From the IMG/VR virus record IMGVR_UViG_3300045988_027937, positions 1 through 30,848 of that record: a stretch of DNA of 30,848 nt; one strand, given 5' to 3'. The translations under genes were made by a program, and so were the position numbers. Below are positions 939 through 25,434 of the stretch, piece by piece. Source of the DNA: a virus. A model generated the notes under the pieces. It was not told the DNA's origin. It saw nothing but the letters and a program-made list of their open reading frames with translations, and did not search any database. How positions within the stretch are numbered: position 1 is the first letter of the stretch; every line of letters begins with the position of its first letter.

Positions 939-1334
939 TTGTTCTTGGGTAGACCACGAGCAGAAATAAGCCAAATTGAATTTGAAAAACTCTGCGGCCT
1001 GCAATGCACGCAAGAAGAGATTTGCGGCTGGTTTGGAGTTTGTTCTGATACGCTGGAGTCTTGGTGCAAGAGAACTTATGAGATGAATTTTTCGGAAGTT
1101 TTCAAGGAAAAGCGTGGCGTGGGGAAAATATCATTGCGCCGCGCCCAGTTTCGATTGGCGGAAAAGAACGCAAATATGGCAATTTGGCTCGGAAAGCAGT
1201 ACCTTGGCCAAAGTGACCGAGGCGAGTACACCGTTGCGGTTGACAGGCGGGAAGATGACCCGCTGACCTTGGCACTGAAAGAAACCGCGAGAGCAATAGA
1301 ACAGAACGAGGGAAGCAATGCCGGCATTAAGTGA
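939..1334 (+). CDS. terS: Terminase small subunit (HTH-type)
   Basis: 131 aa, located directly upstream of and overlapping the large terminase. An N-terminal HTH-like segment is followed by SLRRAQFRLAEKNANMAIWLGKQYLGQSD, typical of P27-type small terminases. TTG start. Confidence 0.75.
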   Translation: MFLGRPRAEISQIEFEKLCGLQCTQEEICGWFGVCSDTLESWCKRTYEMNFSEVFKEKRGVGKISLRRAQFRLAEKNANMAIWLGKQYLGQSDRGEYTVAVDRREDDPLTLALKETARAIEQNEGSNAGIK

Positions 1335-2547
1335 TAAGCAGCTGCAAATCTTGGCGTTTCCTTACACGCGCTTTGACGCTTTGATTGCCGATGGCGCCAT
1401 CCGTTCCGGTAAGACCGTTTGGATGATGTATGCGTTCGTTGAGGACGCTATGCGCCGATATGACAGGCAGCGGTTTGGCATTTGCGGAAAGACCGTTGAC
1501 AGCGCCGTAAAAAACATAGTTGTGCCATACCTTGGAATGACCGAGCCGAGGGAGCGGTTGGACATACAATGGTGTCGGAGCGACAAGCTGCTTGTTGTTC
1601 GGTGTGGCCAGGTCGAGAATTATTTTGAAATATTCGGCGGCAAAGATGAAAGCAGCTTCACGCTCATTCAAGGGCGAACGCTGGCGGGTATTCTGCTGGA
1701 CGAGGTTGCACTAATGCCCCGGTCGTTTGTAGAGCAAGCACTCTCCCGCTGCTCGGTTGATGGATCAAAGTTTTGGTTTAACTGCAACCCGGACAGCCCG
1801 CAGCACTGGTTTTACACCGAATGGGTGAGCCAGCCGGAGTCGCACAATGCCTTGCGGCTGCATTTTGAGTTGCGAGACAACCCGGCGCTGACGGAGCACA
1901 TACTCAAGCGTTATGAGACGATGTACACTGGAGTATTCTACCGGCGGTACATTCTCGGTGAGTGGTGCGTCGCCGAAGGCTTGGTTTACGATTTTGGCGA
2001 GGACAATATAACCGACGAGGTGCCGACGAATGGAGAGTATTATATCTCAATTGACTACGGCACGCAAAATCCGTTCTCTGCTGGCCTGTGGTGTGTTTTA
2101 GGTTCAAAGGCAACAAGGGTTAAGGAGTTCTATTATAATGGCCGCCAAAAGGCTGTACAAAGGACAGACGAGCAGTATTGCGACGATGTGGAGCAGCTGG
2201 CTGATGGATATAAAATCCGAAAGGTCATTGTTGACCCGTCTGCGGCTTCATTTATCGCAGCACTGCGGCAGCGTGGCTTCAATGTCATTAAAGCTGACAA
2301 TACAGTCCTTGACGGCATTCGCCGGGTATCGGTTTACCTGCACGCTGGCAACATCCAAATTCACCGCTCTTGCGTTGACAGCATTGCAGAGTTTGGGCTA
2401 TATCGCTGGGACGACAAGGCAGGGGACGACCGAGTGGTTAAGGAGAACGACCACGCGATGGACGATATTCGCTATTTTGTAAACACGATTTTGCGTAAAA
2501 AAATCGGCAAAAAAGAAAGTCCGCTTATTCTAAATGCGGCTAAATAA
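1318..2547 (+). CDS. terL: Terminase large subunit (PBSX/Terminase_3-like)
   Basis: 409 aa with Walker A DGAIRSGKT, Walker B-like GILLDEV, then a C-terminal nuclease half. Positioned between the small terminase and the portal. Confidence 0.9.
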   Translation: MPALSDKQLQILAFPYTRFDALIADGAIRSGKTVWMMYAFVEDAMRRYDRQRFGICGKTVDSAVKNIVVPYLGMTEPRERLDIQWCRSDKLLVVRCGQVENYFEIFGGKDESSFTLIQGRTLAGILLDEVALMPRSFVEQALSRCSVDGSKFWFNCNPDSPQHWFYTEWVSQPESHNALRLHFELRDNPALTEHILKRYETMYTGVFYRRYILGEWCVAEGLVYDFGEDNITDEVPTNGEYYISIDYGTQNPFSAGLWCVLGSKATRVKEFYYNGRQKAVQRTDEQYCDDVEQLADGYKIRKVIVDPSAASFIAALRQRGFNVIKADNTVLDGIRRVSVYLHAGNIQIHRSCVDSIAEFGLYRWDDKAGDDRVVKENDHAMDDIRYFVNTILRKKIGKKESPLILNAAK

Positions 2548-2562
2548 AAACACGATGAAAGG

Positions 2563-4134
2563 GTGGTTACAATTTCTACTTATTTGACTTTCCAAGACCT
2601 TGAAGCGTGCGGGGCATTTGAGGGCAAACGGCAGGCGTTTGTCCTTTCCGCTATCCGCCAGCACAAGGCAGGGCAGCTTTACCGGACTGCTTGCCGGGCG
2701 TGGGAGTATTATCGCGGGTTAAATCCGACGATAATGCACTATGAAAAGTTAATCTATGACTTGCGTGGCGACGCTCATATTGACAGATGGGCACCGAACC
2801 ACAAGATCACAAGCAATTTTTTCAATTTTGCGATCACGCAAGAAAATCAGTATTTGCTCGGTAACGGTGCCATTTTTGGCGATAAAAAGACAAAGGAAAA
2901 GCTGGGCGGCGGACAAGGTGAACTGCACGGCGGTTCTTATGACTTTGACTACCAACTGCAGAATATCGGCAAGTCTGCTTTGATTGGCGGCGTGGCTTTT
3001 GGCTTTTGGAACCTTGACCATCTTGATGTGTTCGATGTGACAGAGTTCGTCCCTTTGTTTGATGAGGAAAGCGGAGCGCTGCGTGCTGGCATTCGCTTTT
3101 GGCAGCTTGCAGACGACAAGCCGCTGCGGGCAACTCTTTATGAAGTGGACGGCTACACGGAGTACCTAAGCCCGACTGGCACCAATGAAAAAATCTTGAT
3201 TATTCAGCCAAAGACCGCCTACAAGATGAAGGTGCGGCACTCTATCGCTGACGGAACCGAAATTTACGACTTCGAGAATTACCCGGAATTCCCGATTGTT
3301 CCGCTGTATGGCAACGACAAGAAGCAGTCGGAGTTGGTTGGTCGGCAGGGTACGCTCGACGCATTTGACCTTATCAACAGCAACCTCGTGAACAACGTTG
3401 ACGAGGGCAACATGATCTACTGGGCGATCACCAACGCTGGCGGAATGGACGATGAGGACGACCAGCGGTTCTTGGAGCGGTTGCGGACAATGCATGTTGC
3501 TCATATTGACGATGACGGCGCGCAGGTTGAAGCCCACACAGTTGAAGCACCGATAAGCGCGTCCGACGCTGCGATTGATACAATCAAGGCGCGGCTGTAC
3601 GAGGACTTCATGTGCTTGAACGTTCTCGACCTTTCGGCAAACTCAAAAACTGCCACGGAAATCCGGGCGGCATATCAGCCGCTTGACAGCAAGACGGATA
3701 TGTTCGAGTATTGCGTTACGAATTTTGTGGAAAAGATTTTGCAGATTGCAGAAATCACCGACAGCGTCAGCTTCAAGCGGTCAAAGATTGTAAATCAATC
3801 CGAGGAAATGCAGATGGTTCTTTCCGCTGCCGAGTATTTGGACGACGAAACAATTACAGAGCAAGTCTGCTTCTTGCTTGGTATTGGCGACCAGGCGGAT
3901 GAGATCATCAAGAGAAAGAGAGACGAAGAGGGCAGCCGGGTCGAGATTGACGACGCACCAGCCCTTGATGGAGCAGAACCGGCAGGGAAGCAGTCAGAGC
4001 AGGATGTTGGCCAGCAAGGTAATGAGCCGACCGGAAGCGGGCAGGCTGACGACTTGGACGCCTTGACGGATGAGGAATTGCAGGCGCTGCTTGAAAAGAT
4101 CACCGAGAAGATGAAAAAGAAAGGCGGAAAATAA
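2563..4134 (+). CDS. Portal protein (SPP1 gp6-like)
   Basis: 523 aa, immediately after terL, with an acidic C-terminal tail. GTG start after AAAGGG. Confidence 0.85.
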   Translation: MVTISTYLTFQDLEACGAFEGKRQAFVLSAIRQHKAGQLYRTACRAWEYYRGLNPTIMHYEKLIYDLRGDAHIDRWAPNHKITSNFFNFAITQENQYLLGNGAIFGDKKTKEKLGGGQGELHGGSYDFDYQLQNIGKSALIGGVAFGFWNLDHLDVFDVTEFVPLFDEESGALRAGIRFWQLADDKPLRATLYEVDGYTEYLSPTGTNEKILIIQPKTAYKMKVRHSIADGTEIYDFENYPEFPIVPLYGNDKKQSELVGRQGTLDAFDLINSNLVNNVDEGNMIYWAITNAGGMDDEDDQRFLERLRTMHVAHIDDDGAQVEAHTVEAPISASDAAIDTIKARLYEDFMCLNVLDLSANSKTATEIRAAYQPLDSKTDMFEYCVTNFVEKILQIAEITDSVSFKRSKIVNQSEEMQMVLSAAEYLDDETITEQVCFLLGIGDQADEIIKRKRDEEGSRVEIDDAPALDGAEPAGKQSEQDVGQQGNEPTGSGQADDLDALTDEELQALLEKITEKMKKKGGK

Positions 4135-4250
4135 TGGGAACTGAAATTCAAGACGGCTGTGTTGTATTCTATCAGTGGTACAAAGGTAAGTTGGTCAGCA
4201 TTCCATACGATGGTTCCGTAGCTGCTGACCCGGAAGCGTCAAAGAACTAA
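4134..4250 (+). CDS. Small hypothetical protein (38 aa)
   Basis: Its ATG overlaps the portal stop (TAATG). It encodes MGTEIQDGCVVFYQWYKGKLVSIPYDGSVAADPEASKN and fills the portal/gp7 gap. It is below the track's size cutoff. Confidence 0.35.
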   Translation: MGTEIQDGCVVFYQWYKGKLVSIPYDGSVAADPEASKN

Positions 4251-4266
4251 AAAGGAGGCGCCAGCG

Positions 4267-5196
4267 TTGGCAGATAAGGCACACAGAGAAACAGACAAGT
4301 TATTGCTTTCGCTGGAGCGCCGCATTCGGCGGATATACCGGCAGACGCAAGATGAGGTGCGGCAGGCCTGGGACGCTTATATGGCGGAAACCGAGCCAAG
4401 GCTGGCCAGCTTGCAAGAGCGGTATGAAGCCGCCAAGAAAACCGGCGACAAGGCAGAAATCAAGCGGGCTGGTCGTGAGTTGGCATTTGCCAAGCGTGAA
4501 ACGACTGTACAGAATGACCGGTTCAAGAGCATTGCGGAACAGACCGCCGAGAACTTGAGCCGGGTTAATGAAATCGCGCTTGAATACACCAACGGCAGGC
4601 TGCCGGAAGTCTACGCTTTGAATTACAATGCGATAGGGAAAGCCGCCAAGCGAGAACTGCGGGGCTTTTCCTTTTCGCTGGTAGACGCTCACACGGTTGA
4701 GAATTTGATCTTGCGAGGTGATCGCTCCCTGTTGCCGCTGCGGAAGCTGAACAAAGCCAAGGATGTCCGGTGTAATATGAAGAAAATCAATTCCGAGGTC
4801 CTTCAAGGAATTCTGCAAGGAGACAGCATTCCGAAGATTGCAAACCGCATTGCCAAGGTGCAGCAAATGAATATGCACGCAGCTGTTAGAACTGCACGGA
4901 CGGCTGTCACCGGTGCTGAAAACAAAGGGCGTATGGATATGCTCGGCGAGATGGAAGAAAAGGGCGTTGTGGTCAACAAAATGTGGATTGCTGCGCACGA
5001 CGCCAGGACGAGAGACTGGCACGCCGAACTCGATATGAAGTCCGTGCCGCAGGATAAGCCGTTCGTTAATTCTATCGGCTCTATAATGTACCCAGGTGAC
5101 CCGGCGGCAGACCCTGCGAATACATACAACTGCCGCTGTGCCCTTGGATACAAGATAGTAGGTTTCAAACCGCTTAGTGAGGTAAGCAAAAAATGA
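4267..5196 (+). CDS. Head morphogenesis / minor capsid protein (SPP1 gp7, Mu F-like)
   Basis: 309 aa, follows the portal. The C-terminal DWHAELD...PGDPAADPANTYNCRCAL segment is the signature end of the gp7/F family. TTG start after AAAGGAGG. Confidence 0.85.
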   Translation: MADKAHRETDKLLLSLERRIRRIYRQTQDEVRQAWDAYMAETEPRLASLQERYEAAKKTGDKAEIKRAGRELAFAKRETTVQNDRFKSIAEQTAENLSRVNEIALEYTNGRLPEVYALNYNAIGKAAKRELRGFSFSLVDAHTVENLILRGDRSLLPLRKLNKAKDVRCNMKKINSEVLQGILQGDSIPKIANRIAKVQQMNMHAAVRTARTAVTGAENKGRMDMLGEMEEKGVVVNKMWIAAHDARTRDWHAELDMKSVPQDKPFVNSIGSIMYPGDPAADPANTYNCRCALGYKIVGFKPLSEVSKK

Positions 5197-5531
5197 GCGA
5201 AAGCGTAACAGTAAAAGACAACACGGAAGAATTTGAAGAGGCACTACAAAATGCTATCGAGCGCGGGCTTGAAGCTATCGGAGCGTCGGCGGAGACGCAC
5301 GCAAAGACGAATGTGCGGGACTTTCCACGAGTTGACACCGGGCGACTTATGAACAGCATTTCACACGCCACCACTAACAAAGCGGCGTATATTGGCACAA
5401 ATGTTGAATATGCGCTGTATGTAGAGGAGGGCACCCGAAAAATGGCGGCTGCCCATTATTTACGAAATGCCGCGACTCAAAATACTGCGGAGTACAAGCA
5501 ACTGCTTGAGGACAGCCTGCGAAACGCTTAA
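5193..5531 (+). CDS. HK97 gp10-family protein
   Basis: 112 aa. RVDTGRLMNSISH...AAYIGTNVEYALYVEEGT matches the gp10-family core (vDTG.L..Si ... Ya..vE.G). Confidence 0.65.
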   Translation: MSESVTVKDNTEEFEEALQNAIERGLEAIGASAETHAKTNVRDFPRVDTGRLMNSISHATTNKAAYIGTNVEYALYVEEGTRKMAAAHYLRNAATQNTAEYKQLLEDSLRNA

Positions 5532-5553
5532 TCATTAACTTTTTGTATAATCG

Positions 5554-5582
5554 TTGACAAAAAATTCTGCTTGCTGTATAAT
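5554..5582 (+). promoter_or_regulatory. Consensus sigma-A promoter TTGACA-17-TATAAT upstream of the scaffold/capsid genes
   Basis: TTGACA at 5554-5559, 17-nt spacer, TATAAT at 5577-5582, located in the 166-bp gap 5532-5697. Confidence 0.7.
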
Positions 5583-5697
5583 TAAGGCAAGAACAAAAAT
5601 CTAACGGCAAAGAAAAGCCGCCGAGGAAAAGGAGACAAGGTTCTTTTGGCATTGGCGGTCATTGCTACGAAAAAGAACGGAGGAATGACTTATCGCA

Positions 5698-6303
5698 TTG
5701 ACAAGAAAAATGCTCAAAGCAATGGGCATTGGCGAGGAACAGATTGACCAAATCATTGAAGCCCACGCCGACACGGTGGACGCACTGAAAGAGGAGCGGG
5801 ACACCTTGAAAGGCAAGGCGCAGGAATTGGCGAGCGTCCAAAAGGAATTGGACGAAACGAAAAAGCAGCTTGAAGCAGCCGGGGATAACGATGGCTACAA
5901 GAAGCATTATGATGACCTTAAGCAAGAGTTTGACGAATTCAAACAGGCCGCAAGCGTTAAGGAAGCACACACGGCAAAGGCGACGGCTTACCGTAAATTA
6001 TTACAGGCCGCAGGAGTTTCCGATAAACGAGTTGACAGCGTGTTGAAGGTGTCGGACATCGACAGTATCGAACTTGACGCAAAAGGCCAAATCAAGGGCG
6101 CTGACAAGCTGACGGAAGCCGTCAAAACTGAATGGGCTGACTTCATCGTGTCCGAGGGGCAGAGAGGTGCGAACACTTCAACGCCGCCCGGGAACACGCA
6201 GAATAAGACCGTTTTTTCCGCTGATGATATGAAGAAAATGTCTGCCGCAGAAATCAATGCCAATTGGGAGAATATCAAACAGTCGTTGAAATCGACAAAC
6301 TAA
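5698..6303 (+). CDS. Scaffolding protein
   Basis: 201 aa, highly charged and coiled-coil (E/K/D/Q-rich), directly upstream of the major capsid gene. The start is uncertain (TTG 5698 or ATG 5710). Confidence 0.75.
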   Translation: MTRKMLKAMGIGEEQIDQIIEAHADTVDALKEERDTLKGKAQELASVQKELDETKKQLEAAGDNDGYKKHYDDLKQEFDEFKQAASVKEAHTAKATAYRKLLQAAGVSDKRVDSVLKVSDIDSIELDAKGQIKGADKLTEAVKTEWADFIVSEGQRGANTSTPPGNTQNKTVFSADDMKKMSAAEINANWENIKQSLKSTN

Positions 6304-6326
6304 ATTGAAAAAGGAGCAAGAAAAAG

Positions 6327-7184
6327 ATGGCTATTTCTTCTTTTATCCCGCAAATTTGGGACGCACGACTGCTGAATGCGCTGGATAAATCGCATGTCTT
6401 CGCTAATGTGGTCAATCGTGACTACGAGGGCGAAATCAAGCAGCAGGGTGATACCGTTAAAATCAACACTATTGGTGCTGTAACCATCGGCGACTACACC
6501 AAGAACACCGATTTTACCAGCGGCCCGGAAGCGCTGGCTACCACCGCACAGAGCCTGACCATCGACCAGGCTAAATACTTCAACTTCCAAGTTGACGATG
6601 TGGACGCTGCCCAGGCTGCCGGTGATGTGATGGACAAGGCAATGGAGCGCGCAGCTTATGGCTTGAACGACGCCGCTGACGCTTACCTGGCTAAACAGTT
6701 GGCCGATTCTATCACCGCTGGCAACGGCAACCTTGTTGCTACCGACGCTGTGGCGCTGACCGCTGCAAATGTGTACGAGAACGTCGTCAAAATGAAGCTG
6801 CTGCTTGACAAGGCGAATGTGCCCACTGTCGGCCGTTGGCTGGTAGCACCTCCCGAGATGATCGCTCTCATCTTGCAGGACGACCGCTTCGTTAAGACCG
6901 GCGGTTCTATGGCCGAGGATGTGCTACAGAACGGCGTTGTCGCTCGTGCTGCTGGTTTTGACATTTATATGTCAAACAACTGTTTCAGCAAGACCGCAAC
7001 CGGCACCACGACCTTTACTGTCACCGCTGGCGACGAGGGTGCGTGCACCTATGCCGAGCAGATTGTGAGCACCGAGGCTTATCGCCCCGAGAAGCGCTTT
7101 GCTGACGCCGTGAAGGGTCTGCATGTGTATGGCGCAAAAGTTGTTGACGCTAAGCGTCTGGCCGGTTTGAAGTGCACATTCTAA
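6327..7184 (+). CDS. Major capsid protein
   Basis: 285 aa following the scaffold. The N-terminus MAISSFIPQIWDARLLNALDKSHVFANVVNRDYEGEIKQQGDTVKIN is typical of this capsid family. RBS AAAGGAG. Confidence 0.8.
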   Translation: MAISSFIPQIWDARLLNALDKSHVFANVVNRDYEGEIKQQGDTVKINTIGAVTIGDYTKNTDFTSGPEALATTAQSLTIDQAKYFNFQVDDVDAAQAAGDVMDKAMERAAYGLNDAADAYLAKQLADSITAGNGNLVATDAVALTAANVYENVVKMKLLLDKANVPTVGRWLVAPPEMIALILQDDRFVKTGGSMAEDVLQNGVVARAAGFDIYMSNNCFSKTATGTTTFTVTAGDEGACTYAEQIVSTEAYRPEKRFADAVKGLHVYGAKVVDAKRLAGLKCTF

Positions 7185-7226
7185 GCGAAGCAAAACCGAA
7201 TTAAGACCTAAGACAAGGAAGGCGGC

Positions 7227-7658
7227 GTGACTATGCTGACAGAAATTTGTGCAAAGTTGCACAACTACTTCTTGGTTCCGAATGGAATTCACAAGGGGGA
7301 GTTCAAAATTGAAGGCGGCAAAATCACGCCGCTGGACTTTTTGCAGGAAGGTCAATACTTCCGCATCGTGGGGAGCGTCTTTAATGATGGCGTTCATAGG
7401 TATGCCGAGGCTGACTCGGATTTGACCGACGAGGCTTTCAGCGGGGCGATATGGGCACTGGCGATACCTCCTAAACTGGTGGACTTATCAAGGGAAATCA
7501 AGGCGTTTTGCGAGAGCGAGGCGGGCAAGCCCGGCGCATTTGTGAGCGAAAGTTTCGGCGGATATTCTTATAACCGAGGAACGGACACAAACGGTGCTGC
7601 GCTTGACTGGCCTGCTGTCTTTCGTTCACGCTTAAACGAATGGAGGAAACTGCAATGA
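7227..7658 (+). CDS. Head-tail connector/neck protein (putative)
   Basis: 143 aa. Named from its position after the capsid gene, with translational coupling to the next gene. Confidence 0.45.
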   Translation: MTMLTEICAKLHNYFLVPNGIHKGEFKIEGGKITPLDFLQEGQYFRIVGSVFNDGVHRYAEADSDLTDEAFSGAIWALAIPPKLVDLSREIKAFCESEAGKPGAFVSESFGGYSYNRGTDTNGAALDWPAVFRSRLNEWRKLQ

Positions 7659-8011
7659 GCCTTTTGGCACAAGCAATGACAGAGTGCGTCTTTGTACGGA
7701 AAATCGACAAGCCGGACGGCGAGGGCGGATATACCACCAGCTGGGTGGATGGTGCACCGTTTAAGGCGGCAATCACTTTTGACAGTTCGATGGAAGCACG
7801 CACGGCGGAAAAAGCAGGAGTTACAAGTCTGTACACCGTTACCGTTCCAATCGGCACACGGATTGAATATTACGATGTGTTCAAGCGGCTGTCGGACGGC
7901 AAAGTGTTCCGTGTGACTTCCGACGGCGACGACAAGATGACGCCAAAATCCGCCAGCTTCCAAGTGTTCCAAGTGACGGCTGAGGAGTTCACGCCCAGCG
8001 TTGGCGGGTAA
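7640..8011 (+). CDS. Head-closure / head-tail adaptor protein (SPP1 gp16-like, putative)
   Basis: 123 aa. Named from its position and the GGYTTSWVDGAPFKAAI segment typical of head-closure proteins. Confidence 0.5.
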   Translation: MEETAMSLLAQAMTECVFVRKIDKPDGEGGYTTSWVDGAPFKAAITFDSSMEARTAEKAGVTSLYTVTVPIGTRIEYYDVFKRLSDGKVFRVTSDGDDKMTPKSASFQVFQVTAEEFTPSVGG

Positions 8012-8034: not shown

Positions 8035-8230
8035 TGTAGCATTGTAGGCGCCGTTGTAGTGGCAGTTTGTAGTATGCCAAAAATGGCGCCGTTGAGCCAA
8101 AAACAAGGTACTTTATATACTCTCTCTACAAACTCTACAAAGTTTTAGAGAGTAATATAAAGAGGGGCATATATATTGAAATATATTAAATACAGAACCT
8201 TGTTTTGTTGTAGCTTTTGTAGTTTTGTAG
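8035..8230. repeat. Iteron module A: 4x TGTAG, dyad, 2x CTACAAA, AT-rich core, 3x TTTTGTAG
   Basis: TGTAG starts at 8035, 8043, 8055 and 8068. The dyad AATGGC-N8-GCCAAA lies at 8082-8101. CTACA starts at 8126 and 8135. The AT-rich core spans 8140-8208. Further TGTAG copies start at 8209, 8218 and 8226. It lies in a 246-bp non-coding gap and is colinear with 29771-29960. Confidence 0.85.
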
Positions 8231-8257: not shown

Positions 8258-8641
8258 ATGGCGCAGACCAAAGCGGCAGCGATACAAGCGTTTTTTGAGC
8301 GCTTCCTGCCAGCGTATGAGGAGACGACGGTGCCGCAGGGCGCAGCACTGCCGTATTTGACGTACGCGCTTGTGACAGACAGCTTTCACGCTGATGGAAG
8401 CGGCGATACCAGCATTTCCGTTTCGTTGTGGTACAGGGGAACGACTTGGAAGCCGTGCAATGCGATGGCCGACAAGATGAGCGAGACACTTGGCTTTGAC
8501 GGATTAGTCATTCCCGCTGCTGATGGCTATATATGGCTAAAGCGCGGCACGCCGTTTGCGCAGAATATGTCCGACCCGGACGACGACCAAATCCGGCGGA
8601 AGATAATCAATGTCACCGCCGAATATCTAACAAAAAATTAA
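8258..8641 (+). CDS. Neck/tail-completion protein (putative)
   Basis: 127 aa, RBS AAAGGGGAGGG, positioned just before the major tail protein. Confidence 0.4.
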   Translation: MAQTKAAAIQAFFERFLPAYEETTVPQGAALPYLTYALVTDSFHADGSGDTSISVSLWYRGTTWKPCNAMADKMSETLGFDGLVIPAADGYIWLKRGTPFAQNMSDPDDDQIRRKIINVTAEYLTKN

Positions 8642-8656
8642 GAAAGGATTTATGAA

Positions 8657-9259
8657 ATGGGTAAATTTGCAGTTATTCCCAAAAGCACTTTTGACGACCT
8701 GCAACTTGACGCGGGCGTCTTGCTTAAGAAATTTACACCCGGCACCACGACTGAACCGGCGGACGAGGATATTATTTGCGCCACCACTGGTGGTATCAAC
8801 GCGACTTGCGTGCCGACTTATTCCGACTTCGGCGAGGATGTGGACAACTGCCCGAACGGTATGAAAGAGTTGAAGCACCTCGACAGCTGGGAATGCAAGC
8901 TGGCGTTTACCGCTTTGGGTACAAGCCCGAAAGCAATCCGGCTCTCGCTTGGTTCTGCCGATGTTGACAAGGTTGACACAACGAAGATCACGCCCCGGGC
9001 GGACATCGCGCAGGCGGACTTTTCCGATCTTTGGTGGGTTGGTGACAAAGCAGACGGCGGCTTGGTCGCTATTCAGCTTAAGAACGCATTGTCCACCGGC
9101 GGCTTCTCATTGCAGACCGCAAAGAACGGCAAGGGGCAGATTTCCGTAGAGCTGACCGGCCATGTGTCTATCACTGACCAAAAGACCGTGCCGATGGTGT
9201 TTTATTCCACCGGTGCAAGCAAGGCTGCGCAGAGCAAGGCCGCTGCGGTCAACAAATAA
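8657..9259 (+). CDS. Major tail protein
   Basis: 200 aa, positioned immediately upstream of the chaperone pair and tape measure. Confidence 0.65.
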   Translation: MGKFAVIPKSTFDDLQLDAGVLLKKFTPGTTTEPADEDIICATTGGINATCVPTYSDFGEDVDNCPNGMKELKHLDSWECKLAFTALGTSPKAIRLSLGSADVDKVDTTKITPRADIAQADFSDLWWVGDKADGGLVAIQLKNALSTGGFSLQTAKNGKGQISVELTGHVSITDQKTVPMVFYSTGASKAAQSKAAAVNK

Positions 9260-9286
9260 GAATTTTTGTTTAGGAGGTAAACAAAT

Positions 9287-9658
9287 ATGAAAATTTCCGA
9301 ACTAACGACAGAGCGGGCAGCGGATGTCCTTTGCGAGGTAAGCATTTACGCGCTGAATATCTTGGGCGATAAAGAACTGCTTGCTTCTCTGCGTATGCAG
9401 CTTGAGGGCACGGACGGCGACAGTACCAAAGCGGAGTTGATCGCCGTTGCAAGCGAAAAAATTGCCGAACTTGTCCCGCTGCTGCTAAAAAAGCACAAAG
9501 ACGATGTGTTCGGCATTGTCGCAGCTGTGAATGGGCTGACGCTCGAGCAGGTGCGGCAGCAGAAAATCATCAAGACAATGACCGCTATTAAAGAGATGGC
9601 ACAAGACAAAGACTTGATTGATTTTTTCAAATCCTGCGTGTCCACGGAAAAAGCGTAA
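9287..9658 (+). CDS. Tail assembly chaperone (G-like)
   Basis: 123 aa, acidic, positioned before the tape measure. It contains a slippery heptamer near its 3' end. Confidence 0.75.
   Translation: MKISELTTERAADVLCEVSIYALNILGDKELLASLRMQLEGTDGDSTKAELIAVASEKIAELVPLLLKKHKDDVFGIVAAVNGLTLEQVRQQKIIKTMTAIKEMAQDKDLIDFFKSCVSTEKA
9622..9628 (+). promoter_or_regulatory. -1 programmed ribosomal frameshift slippery heptamer T_TTT_TTC
   Basis: The zero-frame codons are GAT TTT TTC AAA. The -1 frame has its last stop (TGA 9619-9621) immediately before the heptamer and stays open to 9945. Confidence 0.75.
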
Positions 9659-9945
9659 CAAGGGCGTTAATTGACGCCCCTAAACTGACAGTACAAGGGC
9701 TGGTTCTCGCTCTGCCGTTACTTATTGAGCGGCAGTCCGAAGAACTGGCCTTTCGTGTTTATTTGACGAATTGCGCAAAAATTTTGACCGAAAACACGGC
9801 CAAGTCGGCTGGCGGTTCTTATTTGACTAAATCGTATTTGGACATCATCAACCCGCCGCCGCCGGAGACACGCACACCTGAGCAGGTAAAACAACAAATT
9901 CTCGGCAAGTTGAAAGACACGGCCGAAGAAAGGAATAACGACTGA
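9622..9945 (+). CDS. T extension of the tail assembly chaperone (G-T fusion made by a -1 frameshift from 9287..9628)
   Basis: The -1 frame is open over 9622-9945 and ends in TGATG overlapping the tape-measure start. The track shows only its distal part (9763..9945). Confidence 0.7.
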   Translation, partial: FFQILRVHGKSVTRALIDAPKLTVQGLVLALPLLIERQSEELAFRVYLTNCAKILTENTAKSAGGSYLTKSYLDIINPPPPETRTPEQVKQQILGKLKDTAEERNND

Positions 9946-11870
9946 TGAATTTATTTGAATTATTCGTCAAAATCGGAGTTGACGACCAAGCAAGTGACAA
10001 GGTCGGCGCTGTCGGTGACAAGATCAAGAGTGGACTTGGAAAGGCAGCCAAGGTTGCGGGTGCCGCCGTTACTGCCGCGGCGACTGCTGCCGGAGCGCTC
10101 GTGAAACAGTCTACTGAAGCGTATGCGAATTATGAGCAGCTGGTCGGCGGTGTTGACACGCTGTTCAAGAAGTCGTCGAAAAAGGTGCAGGCGTACGCCG
10201 CAAATGCGTACAAGACCGCCGGTCTGTCTGCCAACCAGTATATGGAGACGGTGACGAGTTTCTCTGCGTCACTTTTGCAGTCCGTTGGTGGAGACACAGA
10301 CAAGGCGGCAGAAAAAGCAAACATGGCAATTACCGATATGTCGGATAATGCCAACAAAATGGGATCGAACATGGTGGACGTTGAGAACGCCTACAAAGGA
10401 TTTGCAAAGCAGAACTATACCATGCTCGACAACTTAAAGTTGGGATACGGCGGCACAAAGGAGGAAATGGCTCGGCTTCTGCAGGACGCGGAAAAAATAT
10501 CCGGAGTAAAATATGACTTGTCAAGTTACTCCGATGTAGTCGACGCAATACATGTTGTCCAAACGGAAATGGACATCACAGGCACAACGCAGCGTGAGGC
10601 AGCGACGACTATTGAGGGCTCCGTGAATTCAGCTAAGGCAGCGTGGCAAAATTTGCTTACTGGAATGGCGGACGACAACCAGGACTTCCAGGGGCTCGTG
10701 AATCAGTTTGTTGACAGCGTTGCTACCGCAGCAAACAACATTCTTCCAAGAGTGCAGCAAGCGCTCGAGGGTGTCAGTTCGTTGATCGAGAAGCTGGCGC
10801 CTGTGATTTCCGAAAAAATACCTGAACTGATAACGGCAGTGTTGCCATCGCTTGGCGAAGCCGCTCTCGGTATCATTCAGTCATTGGTTGACGGTATAAA
10901 TCAATCTTTGCCTGCGCTGCTTCCGGCAGTGGTAAGCGTCGTCACAACTCTTGCAACCGGCCTTATTGAAATGCTGCCGACCATTTTGGAAATGGGGCTA
11001 AATATAATCACGCAGTTGGCTCTCGGAATTGCCCAAGCGCTGCCGGAACTTGTGCCGACGATAGTTAATGTCGTATTGCAGATTGTAACAACGCTGACAG
11101 ACCCCGAAACGCTAAACAACTTGCTTAATGCTGCCGTTACGCTGATCACAGCGCTGGCTACCGGATTGATCAATGCGCTGCCGGTTCTCTTGCAGCAAGC
11201 TCCGGTAATTATCGGAAACTTAATCACTGCGCTGAATGCAATGTTGCCCAAGATCCTGCAAATGGGCATAACGATTATCGTCAGCGTTGCTCAAGGATTG
11301 GTTGCAGCACTTCCGAAGATTGTAAAGGCGGCACCGCAAATTATAATGTCAGTCGTAAGAGGCGTCGCGGGGTCCATATCTTCTCTGTTCCGTATAGGCA
11401 AGGACATTATAAGCGAGGTCGGCCACGGATTTAGCGAAGCCGTTGATGGTGCCCGCGACTGGGGTCGTGATATGATCGACAACTTCGTGTCAGGCATTCA
11501 AGAAATGTGGGGCAATCTTGTAAGCACAGTAAGCAACACGGCGCAGAAAGTCCGGGACATTTTGGGCTTCTCCGAGCCGAAAAAAGGCCCGTTGTCGAAC
11601 TTCCACACATACGCTCCGGATATGATGAAGTTGTTTGCAAAAGGCATTAAAGAGAACGAGTGGCTTGTGCTTTCGCAAATACAGAAATCGTTTGACTTTG
11701 GCGAGCAAACAATCAGCGCGGGCTACAATGTTAAAGGCTCCGGCGCTGGTGGCGTTGGTGGTGTTGGCAATATCAATGTTACACTCGGAATCGACCCGAA
11801 CGCCAGCTTGAACGCACTTGCTCGTGCTCTGCTGCCTGTTCTTAAGATCGTCGCAAAGGAGGTAGGCTGA
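9945..11870 (+). CDS. Tail tape measure protein
   Basis: 641 aa, Ala/Leu/Gly-rich and helical, with a TP901-type core (AYKTAGLSANQYMETVTSFSASLLQ). Canonical position. Confidence 0.9.
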   Translation: MNLFELFVKIGVDDQASDKVGAVGDKIKSGLGKAAKVAGAAVTAAATAAGALVKQSTEAYANYEQLVGGVDTLFKKSSKKVQAYAANAYKTAGLSANQYMETVTSFSASLLQSVGGDTDKAAEKANMAITDMSDNANKMGSNMVDVENAYKGFAKQNYTMLDNLKLGYGGTKEEMARLLQDAEKISGVKYDLSSYSDVVDAIHVVQTEMDITGTTQREAATTIEGSVNSAKAAWQNLLTGMADDNQDFQGLVNQFVDSVATAANNILPRVQQALEGVSSLIEKLAPVISEKIPELITAVLPSLGEAALGIIQSLVDGINQSLPALLPAVVSVVTTLATGLIEMLPTILEMGLNIITQLALGIAQALPELVPTIVNVVLQIVTTLTDPETLNNLLNAAVTLITALATGLINALPVLLQQAPVIIGNLITALNAMLPKILQMGITIIVSVAQGLVAALPKIVKAAPQIIMSVVRGVAGSISSLFRIGKDIISEVGHGFSEAVDGARDWGRDMIDNFVSGIQEMWGNLVSTVSNTAQKVRDILGFSEPKKGPLSNFHTYAPDMMKLFAKGIKENEWLVLSQIQKSFDFGEQTISAGYNVKGSGAGGVGGVGNINVTLGIDPNASLNALARALLPVLKIVAKEVG

Positions 11871-11871
11871 T

Positions 11872-12240
11872 ATGATAGCGATTAAGATAAACGGCGTTGT
11901 TTATGAAAATGTCGGTACCATCAAGCCGTCTGTGGCGTATGAGTATCATTACGACGTCGTCACGATGGACGGCCGCCGCCACCGGGACATTAAGGGCAAG
12001 CGCACTAACTACGATGTGACCTTTTTCAACAACGATTTTGCGGCTTATGACGCGCTTAAAACGCTGCTAATGACCGCCGACAGCGTCTTGCTTGAAGTGC
12101 CGGACAGCAACATCGGGACAAACACAGGGGAGTATTCCGTCACTGTGACCGGCGACGACATTAAGGGAGTCTTGTATGACGGCAGCTATTACAGCACGGC
12201 ATTGTCTGTTACATTCGAGAGGGTGACTTGCGATGAGTAA
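11872..12240 (+). CDS. Distal tail protein-like (small)
   Basis: 122 aa. Named only because it is the first gene after the tape measure. Confidence 0.4.
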   Translation: MIAIKINGVVYENVGTIKPSVAYEYHYDVVTMDGRRHRDIKGKRTNYDVTFFNNDFAAYDALKTLLMTADSVLLEVPDSNIGTNTGEYSVTVTGDDIKGVLYDGSYYSTALSVTFERVTCDE

Positions 12241-13915
12241 GAACAAATATGGTTTTTTCAAGTATTTAGACTTCTCCGCAAGCGCCGCCAATGGGGCAAC
12301 ATTCGATATTGTCCGAATTGCTCTGCAAAAAGGGTTTGACACTTCCAGCGGTATCGTTTCAAAGGTGTTCAGCGGAACAGGCGATCAAGATTTTAGGTCG
12401 TTTGAGCCGCAGGGGTTCAATTTGAATGAAAAAGTAGCGCTGTTTGGTCAATCCGGAATTGCGCAAGGCGTCATAACGGCTTACAGAAGCGACAGTAATG
12501 GGCTTTTCGTCGATGGCGAGTCAAACTTTCCGTTTAAGATAGAAATATCGCTTAAAGGCTATTATTCAATGTCTGGGATCACTATAAAATCACGGAATGT
12601 GATTAAATCGCTGAAAATAGAGGCGTTCAGGGACAACGCTTCGGTGGCTTTGGGGCAGTTTATTGGCAGCGAAAAAGGAGAATTCTTCCCGCTTGTGATA
12701 GATAATGCGAATAGCATTACGTTGACTGTCGAACAGGCGGAGCCGCTGTCGTTCATCGGCATTTGGGGTATTCAGTTTGGCACCGCTCGAGAATTTGGCG
12801 ACGAAAGCATTATATCCGCGTCGTTGTCGAAGCTGTATTCGCTGACGGCAAAGTCGTTGGAATACGATACGCTTGACTTGACGGTGCTTGACCCGCAGCG
12901 TGGTGATTATCTCGTGCAGAACAAGCAGGCGATTGACTTCTGCGTTGGAGACAAGCCGATTGAACGCTTCTATGCAAATCAAGGGGCGGAAAACGGGGAC
13001 AACACGACGACGATACAGGCGTACAATGTTGTGTCCGTGTTTGAAGCGCAGACGCTTGGTGGTTTCTTCGGAGCCGACGCAAGTAGAGTTATTGAGTTGA
13101 TTATAAAGCCTATCGGATATAATGTTCTCGGAATGGATATAGCCAACGCTCCGACTATTGACGGCTATTTGCCGATCTGCACTATAAGAGAAGCGCTGCA
13201 ATACATTGCGATTGGTTCCGGTTTGCGGTTCAGCAGCCAAGACGGGATTGACAACAACCGTTGCTTACTTGCAGAGCCTGTTCCGACAGTGCCGGAGGAG
13301 ACGGCAGTAGAGTACACGGAGGCAAACATTGTAGGAACGCCAAAATACGACAAGACAGACTTGGTCAAATCCGTCACGCTGAAGCTGCACAAGCTGTCGC
13401 AAGTCAAAGATACCGAGGAGTTGTACCACTGGTACATCGCCAAGAATAAAAAGGTAAAAATCACATTTAGCAGCCCGCACGCAAACTTAAAGGCGTATGA
13501 GGTGACTGGACACAATGCGGACGGTGACGACCTGGTCGCAGAAACTCCGAGCAAAAATGTAACTTTTGAAAAAAAAGAAGCAAATTATTGCGTCGTGGTT
13601 AATAAGTCGAGCAACAAGATTGTTATTATCGGAAACAAATACGAAGATACAACGGTTGAGTATGTTTCAAAAAGCGCTGAGTTGGCGGACAACGACGAGG
13701 CAAGCGAGGTCAGCTATGAAACTTACATTTGCACGGATGACCCGCAGGCAATCTGCGACGAATTGCTGGAGCAGAACAACCGGCGCACGAAAATAACATT
13801 CAGCACCCTTGACCGGCCTAAGATCGGAAAAGCGTACAACATTTTGGGCAAGGTGATGGTGATTACAAAAGTCACGGACACGCTGACGGGCGTATATGAA
13901 GTGGAGGCGATATAA
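12233..13915 (+). CDS. Tail tip / tail-associated (Tal-like) structural protein
   Basis: 560 aa. Named only because it is the second gene after the tape measure. Confidence 0.5.
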   Translation: MSKNKYGFFKYLDFSASAANGATFDIVRIALQKGFDTSSGIVSKVFSGTGDQDFRSFEPQGFNLNEKVALFGQSGIAQGVITAYRSDSNGLFVDGESNFPFKIEISLKGYYSMSGITIKSRNVIKSLKIEAFRDNASVALGQFIGSEKGEFFPLVIDNANSITLTVEQAEPLSFIGIWGIQFGTAREFGDESIISASLSKLYSLTAKSLEYDTLDLTVLDPQRGDYLVQNKQAIDFCVGDKPIERFYANQGAENGDNTTTIQAYNVVSVFEAQTLGGFFGADASRVIELIIKPIGYNVLGMDIANAPTIDGYLPICTIREALQYIAIGSGLRFSSQDGIDNNRCLLAEPVPTVPEETAVEYTEANIVGTPKYDKTDLVKSVTLKLHKLSQVKDTEELYHWYIAKNKKVKITFSSPHANLKAYEVTGHNADGDDLVAETPSKNVTFEKKEANYCVVVNKSSNKIVIIGNKYEDTTVEYVSKSAELADNDEASEVSYETYICTDDPQAICDELLEQNNRRTKITFSTLDRPKIGKAYNILGKVMVITKVTDTLTGVYEVEAI

Positions 13916-15627
13916 TGGCATCGGGCAGAATTCTTGGCGAAATGTTTGACACGCCGGATTATAAGCTATGGGTTGATTGGCGGTCGGTCGTTGACAATAT
14001 GAGAAATAGCTCGCTGGTTACGGCAGAAATGTACATTCAGTACACAGGCAGTGGAACCGGTGCGGCTGGGCAATGGAACGTAGCGCCGATTTTGACCATT
14101 GACGGCAAGAAGCACGAAGCGACCGACACGGCGATTGATACGAGCAGTGGGCAGCCGGTTCTGCTGTTTGGAGTGTACAATCAGCTGGTGGAGCACGACC
14201 CGGATGGCTACAAAGCGGCAGAGATCAAGGGAGAAGTTGGCGGGGTGACCGGCACGACGCTCATTGGTGGCGGCAGGATCAACGGAATTGCTGCGATGGA
14301 CAAAGCGGATGTCGCAAAGCCAGTTTTTCTCGGAAATGTGCAAATTTTGGCCGGATTTGATTATGCCAGGGTTTCGTTTCAAACGGGAACGAACATATCG
14401 CTGGTTGAATATTCACTGAATGGCGGCGATTTCGTTTCCACAAATTATTCCGGATCGGCAAACATTTTTTTCTATATTCGCGGTTTGCAAATCGATACAG
14501 TTTATTCGCTGGTGGTTCGGATCACCAAGGCGGAAAACGGAATGCAGGCGCTGTCATCGAATGTTACATTCAAAACCTTGAAAGTCTATGTGAATGATTT
14601 TGTACTTACAAAAGACTATATATCTGTAAATCTTGGTGAAACCGCAAAGTTGGTCGAGGGCGTTGACTATTTCTTGTACCCGGAAAACGCAACCGACAAG
14701 TCGCTGACAGTCAAAAACACGAACAGCAGCGTTTGCAGCGCTGAATATATAGACGGATCCGTGTTGGTGCGCGGTAAGGCAAAAGGCACGGCAGACCTGC
14801 GGTTGTCTGTAAATAGCACGCTGCCTATTTATGGAGTGCCGGAATTCCGGGTGCGTGTCAATGTCAAGGTTCCAGTAGAGGGCGTTCGCTTCAATATAAA
14901 GCAAACGACGCTGCGTGTTGGGGACACTTGGCAAGCAGATTACACCGTGCTGCCGATTGGCTGTGACGGCTACGATGTAGAGTTGCGGTCGTTTGCGCCA
15001 AGCGTTGCAACTGTTGACGGCTCTGTGGTGACAGCTGTTGCTGCTGGTGTTGCTCAGATCGGTGTTACAGTGACTGCCGACGAAAAGGAGTACACGGATG
15101 TTTGCGAGGTGACCGTTGTCGCCGCCGGGTCACTCGAGGGCTACCAAAATTATTACGAGCCCGTCGACTTTTTGACAGAGAATGTGCTCAACGATGTTTG
15201 GCGAAATGCGCAAATCATCAAAGCGTTGTTTGATCTGCAAACGAAAGACAAATACAAAGTTGGAACAATCACGAAGCCGCCACAAAGCACGGTTGACGGA
15301 GTTGTGCAGCCATACGGCGGGACGCAACTGGCGGATGTAAAGGCTGTCCTTGACGGAGTTGAAACGGATATGCAGGTGCTTAACTCTTCCAAGATTGAAA
15401 GCGTATATTACATCACGAGCAGTTATCGCATTGACCCTTGGGGGATTGACAAGGCCGGAGTTTGGCGTTGGCTGCAAGTCTTAGATGATCTATTCCAAAT
15501 GCTGACCACGGATGTCGGCTACTGGGGTTACTTACAATGCGCAGACGGCACACCAACCGTTGACGGCAGAACATTGGCGGCTCGTGGAACTTCTGTTGCG
15601 GTTGACTTTGCGAGCGTAATATTGTAG
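13915..15627 (+). CDS. Tail fibre/receptor-binding-type protein with Ig-like (Big_2-like) repeats
   Basis: 570 aa. Two Big_2-like segments are visible: VNLGETAKLV...SLTVKNTNSSVCSAEYIDGSVLVRGKAKGTADLRLSV and LRVGDTWQADYTVLP...VATVDGSVVTAVAAGVAQIGVTV. Confidence 0.6.
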   Translation: MASGRILGEMFDTPDYKLWVDWRSVVDNMRNSSLVTAEMYIQYTGSGTGAAGQWNVAPILTIDGKKHEATDTAIDTSSGQPVLLFGVYNQLVEHDPDGYKAAEIKGEVGGVTGTTLIGGGRINGIAAMDKADVAKPVFLGNVQILAGFDYARVSFQTGTNISLVEYSLNGGDFVSTNYSGSANIFFYIRGLQIDTVYSLVVRITKAENGMQALSSNVTFKTLKVYVNDFVLTKDYISVNLGETAKLVEGVDYFLYPENATDKSLTVKNTNSSVCSAEYIDGSVLVRGKAKGTADLRLSVNSTLPIYGVPEFRVRVNVKVPVEGVRFNIKQTTLRVGDTWQADYTVLPIGCDGYDVELRSFAPSVATVDGSVVTAVAAGVAQIGVTVTADEKEYTDVCEVTVVAAGSLEGYQNYYEPVDFLTENVLNDVWRNAQIIKALFDLQTKDKYKVGTITKPPQSTVDGVVQPYGGTQLADVKAVLDGVETDMQVLNSSKIESVYYITSSYRIDPWGIDKAGVWRWLQVLDDLFQMLTTDVGYWGYLQCADGTPTVDGRTLAARGTSVAVDFASVIL

Positions 15628-15655
15628 AATAAAAATATAAAGGAGGAATTCCGAA

Positions 15656-16348
15656 ATGGCATTATCACCAATCAAGTTGAATGTGAAAGCCCAGCAGCTG
15701 GAAGCACTGGCAAATATGCTGACCGGAGAGGACATCGTGTTCGTGTTTGACGCTGGTGGAGCGATCAAGGACAGCGTTGCTTTTACTCTTGACAGCGCTC
15801 TGTCTGAGGGCAGCCAAAACCCTGTCGCAAACGCTGCGATTACTGAAGCAATCAATGACCAATCGGCAAGGGTTGCAAAGCTGGAAGCGCACAAAGGCGT
15901 GTCTTATCTGCAAGCGTGTTTGTCAAGTGACACGAAGATCACGAAAGAAGGCACATACGAAAATCCGGTTATTCTGCCGTTCACTGGGACTACACGCAGT
16001 GACGGATCGGGTCTTAGCCTCGGCAACAATGGCGTTGTTATCGGCGCAGGCGTTAAAAAGGTTCGGGTGTCGGCGCAAATGTACATGTGGAATTCGACGG
16101 CTCTGACTCGATGTGAAATCAATGTTTACATCAGCAATGCCGACGGCACTCGGTCGCGTCATCTCCGATCAATTACAAAGCGTGTCGATAATTATGAAAC
16201 GATTTCGACTTCGCAAATTATTTTACCGGTTACCGAAGGCCAGACGGTGCAAGCTGCTTATGTCGGAAAGCCGGACACGACAATCGTCTCATATAAAGAC
16301 AGCACTCTCTTGATCGTTGAAGTCGTAGAATGGGAGGACACGAAATGA
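15656..16348 (+). CDS. Tail fibre protein with a jelly-roll-like C-terminal head
   Basis: 230 aa. It carries the fibre motif LDSALSEGSQNPVANAAITEAIN and a beta-rich C-terminus. Confidence 0.5.
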   Translation: MALSPIKLNVKAQQLEALANMLTGEDIVFVFDAGGAIKDSVAFTLDSALSEGSQNPVANAAITEAINDQSARVAKLEAHKGVSYLQACLSSDTKITKEGTYENPVILPFTGTTRSDGSGLSLGNNGVVIGAGVKKVRVSAQMYMWNSTALTRCEINVYISNADGTRSRHLRSITKRVDNYETISTSQIILPVTEGQTVQAAYVGKPDTTIVSYKDSTLLIVEVVEWEDTK

Positions 16349-17013
16349 ACGTATATCTAAAAGACAGCGTGTTCACCACCAGGATCGACACAAGCGAGAA
16401 CTGGGCAGCCGCCAACCCGGTGCTGTACAAAGGCGAACGAGGCATTGACAGCACCGAAGGAAAGGAAAAGGTCGGAGATGGTGTGACGGCTTGGAACGAT
16501 CTGCCGTGGTTTGGCAGTGGCGGGTCTGCCCCTGCTGCCGAGATTTGGGAGCCTGTGTTCTCCAAGACCTTTGACGAGGACACCACGGTCAACCAGCAGT
16601 GGAACCTTGCCAAGCCCTGCCGAAAGATCAGGCTGCGTATGGCTGTGGCTGGCAGTGCTTCTAATTCATCGGCCGGCGATGCCACTGTGTATCTGAACTC
16701 TTACACGTCCAAGTGCTTTCTGCCAAATGTGTTCCGGTTTGAGACGGACGCGGCGAAAGGTTGTCTTGCGGTAGCGGAAGCTGATGTCACCGGCAACATG
16801 GTGTGCGTGCAAACGAACAAGACGAACATATCCAGCAACTTCAACGCGGCCAACGTCTTGGCAGGAAATGCAATATGGAATGCAAGCGGGATCACCTTCA
16901 ACATTATGAGAGATATAGAAAATCATGGTGCCATTAAGACGTTGTCGTTCCCAACGAACGGCAAGACGATCGGAGCGGGCACCCAGGTGGAAGTATTGGG
17001 GGTGGCAAAATGA
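16345..17013 (+). CDS. Tail fibre/RBP-type protein with the conserved fibre N-terminal motif (hyaluronidase/Mtd N-terminal-like)
   Basis: ATG at 16345. NWAAANPVLYKGERGIDSTEGKEKVGDGVTAWNDLPWF matches the widespread fibre N-terminal motif. Confidence 0.55.
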   Translation: MNVYLKDSVFTTRIDTSENWAAANPVLYKGERGIDSTEGKEKVGDGVTAWNDLPWFGSGGSAPAAEIWEPVFSKTFDEDTTVNQQWNLAKPCRKIRLRMAVAGSASNSSAGDATVYLNSYTSKCFLPNVFRFETDAAKGCLAVAEADVTGNMVCVQTNKTNISSNFNAANVLAGNAIWNASGITFNIMRDIENHGAIKTLSFPTNGKTIGAGTQVEVLGVAK

Positions 17014-17189: not shown

Positions 17190-17206
17190 GAAAGGCGGTC
17201 AAAAAA

Positions 17207-22339: not shown

Positions 22340-22351
22340 AGGCGGCCGCCT

Positions 22352-25430: not shown

Positions 25431-25434
25431 AAAA

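Follow-up and report, generated by a model that had tools for sequence, protein, structure and literature searches.

Why does a tailed gut phage carry, in the middle of its structural operon, a non-coding module with a counterpart directly behind its replication gene? The question is raised by IMG/VR virus record IMGVR_UViG_3300045988_027937, of which positions 1 to 30,848 (30,848 nucleotides, here called the window) were analysed as a whole. A 246-bp gap between the stop of a head-closure gene (8011) and the start of the next gene (8258) holds a cluster of TGTAG pentamers and their inverted form, CTACA (module A, 8035-8230), and a similar cluster (module B, 29771-30032) starts 28 nt past the stop of rep, a gene for a VapE-type helicase-initiator of superfamily 3 (SF3). 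Since the terminal 99 bp of the window are identical (1-99 = 30750-30848), it represents a closed circular phage genome of 30,749 bp. We consider it somewhat better than an even bet, roughly 55 %, that module A duplicates the phage's replication origin in full, an origin of the type known from Staphylococcus aureus pathogenicity islands (SaPIs), and that Rep would bind there, melt the duplex and load as at B.

Modules A and B and the Rep initiator

Module A is composed of the following elements:

8035-8072, plus strand: left array of four direct TGTAG (starts 8035, 8043, 8055 and 8068; spacings 8/12/13), invariant in 18 distinct relatives
8079-8103: A-tract-flanked TGGC-N8-GCCA element (TGGC-N8-GCCA itself 8084-8099), 16 % of positions variable among relatives
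within 8114-8119: TATATA box
8126-8139, minus strand: inverted iterons, CTACA at 8126 and 8135 (spacing 9), at the left edge of the AT-rich core
8141-8207: AT-rich core of 67 bp, 75 % A+T, a putative DNA unwinding element
8209-8230, plus strand: right array of three direct TGTAG (8209, 8218 and 8226); 27 nt separate its end from the ATG of the gene that follows

These nine pentamers in 196 bp compare with 0.18 expected (Poisson P = 5e-13) at a background rate of 0.93/kb, both strands counted and modules A and B excluded, and in 300 dinucleotide-preserving shuffles of the genome no 200-bp window held more than 4 of them. The preliminary description of this DNA had claimed clustering beyond chance, and rightly so; all nine pentamers, the TATATA box and the AT-rich core also lie where it had placed them. 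The dyad that it had given for A as AATGGC-N8-GCCAAA is real as an element, and the only three TGGC-N8-GCCA sites of the whole window lie inside modules A and B, but its arms comprise only 4 bp (TGGC-N8-GCCA). In many relatives the dyad of module A is reduced to GGC...GCC.

The corresponding elements of module B are:

29771-29808, plus strand: left array of four direct TGTAG, spacings 8/12/13
29814-29838: perfect dyad TTTGGC-N8-GCCAAA
29861-29874, minus strand: inverted iterons, CTACA at 29861 and 29870
29875-29947: AT-rich core, 79 % A+T
29949-30032: right side, with TGTAG at 29949 and 29956, a second dyad at 29976-30000, CTACA at 30008 and 30022, and TGTAG at 30028

That the layout of A recurs at 29771-29960, as had been proposed, is borne out by an almost gap-free alignment of the two modules with 74-79 % identity; the boundary first drawn was too narrow, as B continues to about 30032, with 8 pentamers within 29771-29960 and 3 more up to 30032. 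Common to A and B are the iteron spacings of 8/12/13 and 9 bp, the distance of 26 nt from GCCA to the first CTACA, and conserved blocks within the cores, e.g. TAATATAAA and GAAATATATT. All cis features of B, among them the divergent iteron pairs that flank the core, are found in module A. Furthermore, the window 29871-29930, almost wholly the core of B, is the least stable 60-bp duplex of the genome, and the 60-bp window from 8132, which starts in the inverted iterons of A, is the third least stable, ranks 2 and 4 being taken by AT-rich regions that are probably early promoters (19606-19649 and 24124-24167). The first and third rank of the B and A cores supports the origin reading.

The genes directly preceding module B are:

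27676-28290, plus strand: pri, a CHC2 zinc-finger primase-like gene that immediately precedes rep and overlaps with it (Pfam Zn_ribbon_DnaG, E = 9e-21; PHROG DNA primase families)
28277-29743, plus strand: rep, encoding a VapE-type SF3 helicase-initiator of 488 aa, the proposed iteron binder (Pfam VapE-like_dom, E = 7e-64)

Rep matches SaPI1 Rep in PDB entry 7PDS at E = 8e-47 (phmmer), and a profile of ten Rep homologues aligns with residues 29-464 of its 477 at E = 5e-99, thus reaching residues about 400-464, the C-terminal domain of SaPI1 Rep. Judged by these alignments, Rep is homologous to SaPI1 Rep over its full length, the iteron-reading C-terminal winged-helix domain included. Entry 7PDS is the SaPI1 Rep-DNA complex, and SaPI Reps are self-loading helicase-initiators whose C-terminal winged helix reads penta- or hexanucleotide iterons (PMC9371898). 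From the same work we took the definition of a SaPI origin, in which 6-12 iterons lie directly after rep around a middle AT-rich region with at least two opposed iterons on each side; the same source states that SaPI origins, once cloned, replicate if pri-rep is provided in trans (PMC9371898).

Set beside this definition, module A has 9 pentanucleotides and module B 8, with 3 more in its extension; the core is flanked in A (75 % A+T) by two CTACA and three TGTAG and in B (79 % A+T) by two CTACA and two TGTAG; and B follows the rep stop at 28 nt. In the protein encoded by 27676-28290 (204 aa), a CHC2 DnaG-type zinc ribbon and similarity to primase PHROGs were found, but no catalytic primase domain; the gene order in this phage is pri-rep-ori. 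Because module B lies directly after a SaPI1 Rep homologue, has a primase-like gene upstream and matches the origin definition, we read it as a SaPI-type origin. Among the binding proteins suggested earlier, the VirE/VapE protein, that is Rep, is the one favoured by the evidence, and the two others are not: the ribbon-helix-helix open reading frame (ORF) at 25272-25430 (52 aa) is NikA/TacA-like and could not be linked to the modules, and the "sigma-like" ORF at 19056-19277 was rejected, as its one Sigma70_r4 match is below threshold (E = 0.0097) and no PHROG family matches it.

In the model that we favour, Rep (28277-29743), a predicted self-loading helicase-initiator of the SF3 VapE/SaPI Rep family, would read TGTAG with its C-terminal winged helix and occupy the iterons flanking the core, two CTACA on the left and three TGTAG on the right, together with the four-copy array further left. 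It would then melt the core and load itself, and the adjacent CHC2 primase-like protein and host polymerases would begin synthesis. Module B would be the canonical origin; A, 9.0 kb further on, would offer the same loading site, so that the genome would have two Rep-dependent initiation sites. As a cloned SaPI origin needs only pri-rep in trans, no further cis element should be required beside a full origin copy. Binding of TGTAG by Rep, melting of the core and firing at A are what we infer.

Conservation and distribution of the modules

Relatives of the phage were found in human gut metagenomes and among Clostridia genomes (Oscillibacter, Acutalibacter). Counted over 18 distinct close relatives, the variation in and around module A is distributed as follows:

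iteron pentamers: 1/45 positions variable (2 %)
spacers within the left array: 50 % variable
other module A positions: 35 % variable
third codon positions of the flanking genes: 63-67 % variable
first and second codon positions: 6-13 % variable

This pattern of sequence variation shows the pentamers of module A to be under strong selection. One further contig of the window clade, of 34 kb (L455, CAVKXW010000018.1), has module A with one mutated iteron (TGTAT); its assignment to a "Bacteroidaceae" metagenome-assembled genome is probably a binning error, because all other genome relatives are Clostridia.

The module proved to be kept not only in the 18 relatives but also in a second clade (clade 2), whose Rep and head-closure proteins are each 68 % identical to those of the window and whose next gene product is 50 % identical. 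Each clade-2 genome has two TGTAG modules, one after rep or after a methylase gene inserted behind rep, the other at the same junction of head-closure and next gene as A. In the window clade both A and B have four direct iterons and a dyad, whereas in clade 2 CTACAAAG leads in both modules, with three direct iterons and one inverted iteron; alignment scores are 70 and 71 within a genome versus 38-62 between clades. The resemblance of the two modules within each genome fits the idea that A and B both track one trans-acting factor. In four clade-2 relatives (L103, L109, L249 and L251) a DNA methylase-like gene lies between rep and the origin module, and therefore strict adjacency of origin and rep can be lost.

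Module A is absent from 7 viral contigs and from 8 of 10 genome contigs that have homologous head-tail genes and no Rep homologue in the fetched DNA, the seven viral loci spanning only about 6 kb with the replication genes outside view. In these structural relatives the two genes either stand next to each other, 12-18 bp apart, or are separated by inserted, unrelated ORFs. Likewise, in a clade with GTTACA as its repeat word the head-tail junction measures 15 bp, and a second iteron cluster is missing all the way from the portal gene to within the gene that follows the tape-measure gene, as read on a contig whose portal protein is 68-69 % identical to that of the window and which is tied to a GTTACA Rep by 95-97 % portal identity only. 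Three complete cultured VapE-type phages (Corynebacterium SamW, Staphylococcus phiSa2wa and Streptococcus Javan630) have one clear iteron cluster each, right after the VapE-type gene; a fourth cultured phage, of Bacteroides, gave a weak iteron signal. This distribution makes the second copy a derived feature of TGTAG lineages, not general to the replicon. A terminase-based set of 80 loci with 10-kb flanks revealed mosaic phages, with a Rep homologue in only 4 and shared head-tail genes in none.

For the module behind rep, 43 viral contigs with Rep homologues were fetched by protein search and the DNA after the gene was read. The genes of most Rep homologues (29-70 % identity) are directly followed by a module built in the same way, outside the window clade in the form of direct repeats, two close inverted repeats, an AT-rich stretch and further direct repeats, and the repeat word is specific to the lineage:

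clade 2 (L102, L104, L113, L116), Rep 68 % identical: TGTAG
L120, Rep 35 %: TGTAG
L105-L108 and L110, Rep 69-70 %: GTTACA
L111, Rep 64 %: GTTACA
L114 and L115, Rep 54-55 %: GTTACA
L112, Rep 56-57 %: GGTTCC
L117-L119, Rep 32-33 %: TGTCTAC
L121 and L123, Rep 30-31 %: TGTCAAC
L122, Rep 37 %: GTTACC

An automated count agrees with this reading, as the top 6-mer is found 5-12 times within 450 bp downstream of rep but is nearly absent from the rest of the locus. A search for GTTACA modules on the DNA pattern alone returned 120 loci. A Rep homologue is encoded in 38, and wherever this was checked the module directly adjoins the 3' end of its gene. The pattern TTGTAG-N6-TTGTAG-N6/7-TTGTAG yielded mostly unrelated contigs among the matches listed. 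In L105, where the word has changed, the C-terminal domain of Rep is 50 % identical to that of the window versus 72 % for the rest of the protein, and in clade 2, with the same word, 66 % versus 69 %; this is suggestive, although not proof, that the C-terminal domain sets iteron specificity. In several lineages (L117-L123) a VRR-NUC nuclease gene comes next after the module, which places the module inside the replication gene cluster, and in the L105 clade a separate consensus sigma-A promoter (TTGACA-17-TATAAT-type) follows it.

Several further arrays were noticed. A motif like AAAACCGCATAA(C/A)A stands beside GCCAAAAAC in the origin modules of L102 (about 4190-4230), L120 (about 3880-3900) and L123 (about 3930-3950), lineages whose Rep is only 30-68 % identical to that of the window. 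The TGGC-N8-GCCAAAAA element of the window looks like a counterpart of this motif, which may be a host-factor or priming site. In L065 (IMGVR_UViG_3300049811_000069, about 3900-4270), a gene of 757 aa, primase-polymerase-like by eye, is immediately followed by TGTAGCA arrays, direct and inverted, on both sides of a very AT-rich stretch, and its product has no BLAST similarity to the Rep of the window; the same origin layout may thus serve a different initiator family. A further iteron-like array within a late operon may be present in L056 (IMGVR_UViG_3300002898_001107, about 2790-2900), an unrelated contig where one CTACA and six direct TGTAG separate a major-tail-like gene from the tail gene that comes next; the 11.5 kb examined contain no Rep homologue.

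What module A may do

An origin module with a second one in the late region had been the central proposal of the preliminary description, and it gains support from the position of B beside a SaPI1 Rep homologue and from the recurrence of the architecture behind other Reps. Several points nonetheless weigh against initiation at A. Adjacency to rep, which is part of the description of a SaPI origin, fails for A, 9.0 kb downstream. Cumulative GC skew rises monotonically around the genome and therefore gives no sign of one or two origins. Both the GTTACA clade and the three cultured VapE-type phages manage with one cluster, and since this replicon type works with one copy, the extra one may serve something besides initiation. 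The right-hand iterons of A and B lie within 10-30 nt of the downstream ribosome-binding site, which would also suit a regulatory role, and the conserved core blocks TAATATAAA and GAAATATATT are not explained by plain unwinding. Finally, binding, melting and initiation are all deductions from the DNA and protein sequences.

As an origin, module A resembles the pri-rep-ori units of SaPIs and other phage-inducible chromosomal islands (S. aureus; Rep structures 7PDS and 7OLA) in its homologous Rep, the primase-like gene upstream and the pentanucleotide iterons. The phage modules also have, as in SaPIs, a central AT-rich region with opposed iterons on both sides, B being placed right after rep. 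The element described here is, however, a complete tailed-phage genome and not a satellite island, and it has two origin copies, the second 9 kb from rep in the structural operon, whereas described SaPI origins are single and beside rep; in addition, the core of the phage modules is preceded on its left by an extra array of four direct copies and by a TGGC-N8-GCCA dyad. Iteron origins of theta plasmids (RepA, Pi or TrfA) likewise pair short direct repeats for an element-encoded initiator with an AT-rich unwinding element. Their iterons are about 17-22 bp long and helically phased, their initiator is not a helicase, and DnaA and DnaB are needed. Here, by contrast, the iterons are words of 5-7 bp at irregular spacings of 8-13 bp, and family scans of the ORFs in the phage's replication region found no gene for a RepA/Pi/TrfA-type initiator.

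The retention of a second copy, although the replicon works with one, would be accounted for if A acted as proposed for oriR of phage SPP1, namely as a Rep-bound, non-firing block that stalls forks and hands them to recombination proteins for a switch from theta replication to concatemers. SPP1 has two similarly organised origins, and its gp38 at the late-region oriR is proposed to stall forks and to set off concatemer synthesis by recombination (PMC3485210; PMC6316719). Genes for a Sak4-like protein, a single-stranded DNA-binding (SSB)-like protein and an ERCC4-type nuclease moreover lie just upstream of pri-rep. A mere barrier, however, needs binding sites only, whereas A retains a genome-extreme AT-rich core and divergent iteron pairs; the SPP1 model is itself unproven, and the initiators are unrelated, gp38 with a DnaB-type helicase in one case and a self-loading SF3 Rep in the other. 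We hold such a purely blocking role, the main alternative to a firing origin, to be rather unlikely. The parallel with SPP1 oriL and oriR is as follows: two similarly organised origins (direct repeats plus an AT-rich unwinding element) lie 9-13 kb apart on a small genome, one with the replication genes and the other interrupting the late structural order, as A does between head closure and tail, and one initiator presumably binds both (PMC6316719). The differences are that SPP1 employs gp38, the loader gp39 and the DnaB-type helicase gp40 where a self-loading SF3 Rep is predicted here, the ten ORFs scanned at 24235-29743 (four of which match no family) giving no match to a DnaB-type helicase, a loader or a gp38-like protein; that oriL lies inside gene 38, whereas module B is intergenic; and that oriR lies in a moron-gene segment between transcription signals, whereas A fills a 246-bp gap within one operon. 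A tentative, more specific proposal is that A, beyond mere redundancy, is a programmed Rep-bound site of the late operon which times the switch from circle-to-circle to concatemer replication, either by late firing or by stalling forks from B, and which maybe couples tail-gene expression to replication. If true, A would be a convergent, mechanistically independent counterpart of SPP1 oriR based on a self-loading SF3 helicase-initiator.

The preliminary description had also offered an activator-dependent late promoter, and a promoter or operator at which Rep or another activator ties tail-gene expression to replication would suit the location of A and B directly upstream of plus-strand genes, with iterons 10-30 nt from the ribosome-binding site, as well as a TATAAA/TATAAT box after the inverted iterons that is conserved in A, B and clade 2, and the lack of a terminator before A. 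This reading is disfavoured, and we deem it improbable, because the homologous modules of other lineages are embedded in replication clusters, with rep on one side and a VRR-NUC nuclease gene on the other, and because the GTTACA clade (L105) has its separate consensus promoter after the module. The structural genes, too, already have sigma-70-type promoters of their own. One, at 30385-30413 (TTGATT-17-TGcTACAAT, extended -10), stands ahead of the methylase and terminase genes and is overlapped by the terminator hairpin at 30373-30399; another, at 5554-5582 within the structural gene block, is a perfect sigma-70 consensus (TTGACA-17-TATAAT, 12/12) and precedes the gene 5698-6303 (201 aa), and therefore the structural genes seem to be served by host-type promoters. 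Within A the promoter scan gave one weak site (9/12), with none at the matching position in B, and structural relatives express the same tail genes with a junction of 12-18 bp.

Two iteron-bearing sites on one small circle also resemble satellite phage P4, whose alpha protein, as Ziegelin and Lanka (1995; cited in PMC7145576) reportedly described, is a primase-helicase with a C-terminal origin-binding domain that needs a second iteron region several kb from ori. That region, crr, is reportedly a set of iterons needed in cis as a helper and not a full origin copy. The P4 enzyme thus reportedly combines a primase, an SF3-type helicase and a C-terminal origin-binding domain that are here split into pri and rep, and it acts on short iterons at two separated places on a small circle; the iteron sequences are unrelated, and A is a full copy that includes an AT-rich core. 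By analogy, Rep might sit on A and B, loop the intervening 9 kb and aid or permit firing at B only. Against such looping stand the completeness of A and the relatives of the same replicon type that manage with one module, and it strikes us as distinctly improbable.

Because related phages have no gap at the head-tail junction, A must have arisen as an insertion, and it might play no part in replication, being either an origin duplicate of neutral or selfish nature or a structured intercistronic RNA. The plus-strand RNA indeed folds better than shuffled sequence (z = -2.8 for A, -5.4 for B). Yet the pentamers are variable at 1/45 positions versus 50-67 % for neutral classes, and the module occupies the same site in two clades whose flanking proteins are 50-68 % identical, so that we give this explanation very little credence. 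The RNA element as such was rejected, since the predicted folds of A and B differ and arise from the inverted iterons, and Rfam covariance models gave no match at E <= 1 anywhere in the window.

Genome setting and wider meaning

The second-origin reading places A in a genome whose remaining features are, around the circle:

939-8011, plus strand: terminase, portal and head genes and head closure
7640-8011, plus strand: head-closure (head completion) gene (PHROG head closure Hc1; sub-threshold Pfam Phage_HCP match)
8258-18396, plus strand: tail and lysis genes
8258-8641, plus strand: neck or tail-terminator-like gene (PHROG head protein and tail terminator families)
8657-9259, plus strand: major tail protein gene (PHROG major tail protein)
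about 24124, plus strand: probable early promoter
25435-26061, plus strand: Sak4-like annealing protein
26284-26862, plus strand: SSB-like protein
26862-27380, plus strand: ERCC4-type nuclease
30059-30388, plus strand: orphan gene, 109 aa
30373-30399: terminator, strong hairpin GCCGCCAAAGCG...TGGCGGC followed by a T-run, which ends the 109-aa orphan gene
30436-937, plus strand: ParB_N-methyltransferase (ParB-methylase) gene, 416 aa, spanning the circle junction

No integrase or repressor was found anywhere in the genome, and when 25 kb of the window were compared by megablast with 50,697 annotated phage records, there was no match. An AT-rich promoter-like block ending in AAAAAGTATTGACTTTT occurs twice (19606-19649 and 24124-24167), probably as early promoters. 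A minus-strand block (21779-24037) comprises five genes without known function, of which 22352-22753 weakly matches BclA C-terminal-like.

Both the origin type and, from SPP1, the idea of a second origin in the late region are already known. Our literature search retrieved no description of a SaPI-type origin that is present twice with its second copy fixed between head and tail genes, and nothing relevant on two iteron origins in one phage or on iterons together with VapE; in the other lineages surveyed here, a doubled SaPI-type origin with a copy at the head-tail junction was not seen either.

In SPP1, the best-known phage with two origins, the role of oriR is still a model. The phage described here would be a second, independent two-origin case on a much simpler replicon, with one self-loading helicase-initiator, 5-bp iterons and a genome of 30.7 kb, and could be of use in asking why certain phages retain two origins; many natural variants of it exist in human gut metagenomes. 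As the second copy resides at one gene junction in two clades and is absent in sister clades, natural comparisons with and without it are at hand. Beyond this phage, pri-rep-ori units with lineage-specific iteron words are widespread among tailed phages of Clostridia, Staphylococcus, Streptococcus, Corynebacterium and others; their survey helps to locate origins in uncultured phage genomes, and the matched pairs of Rep C-terminal domain and iteron word could serve the study of recognition specificity.

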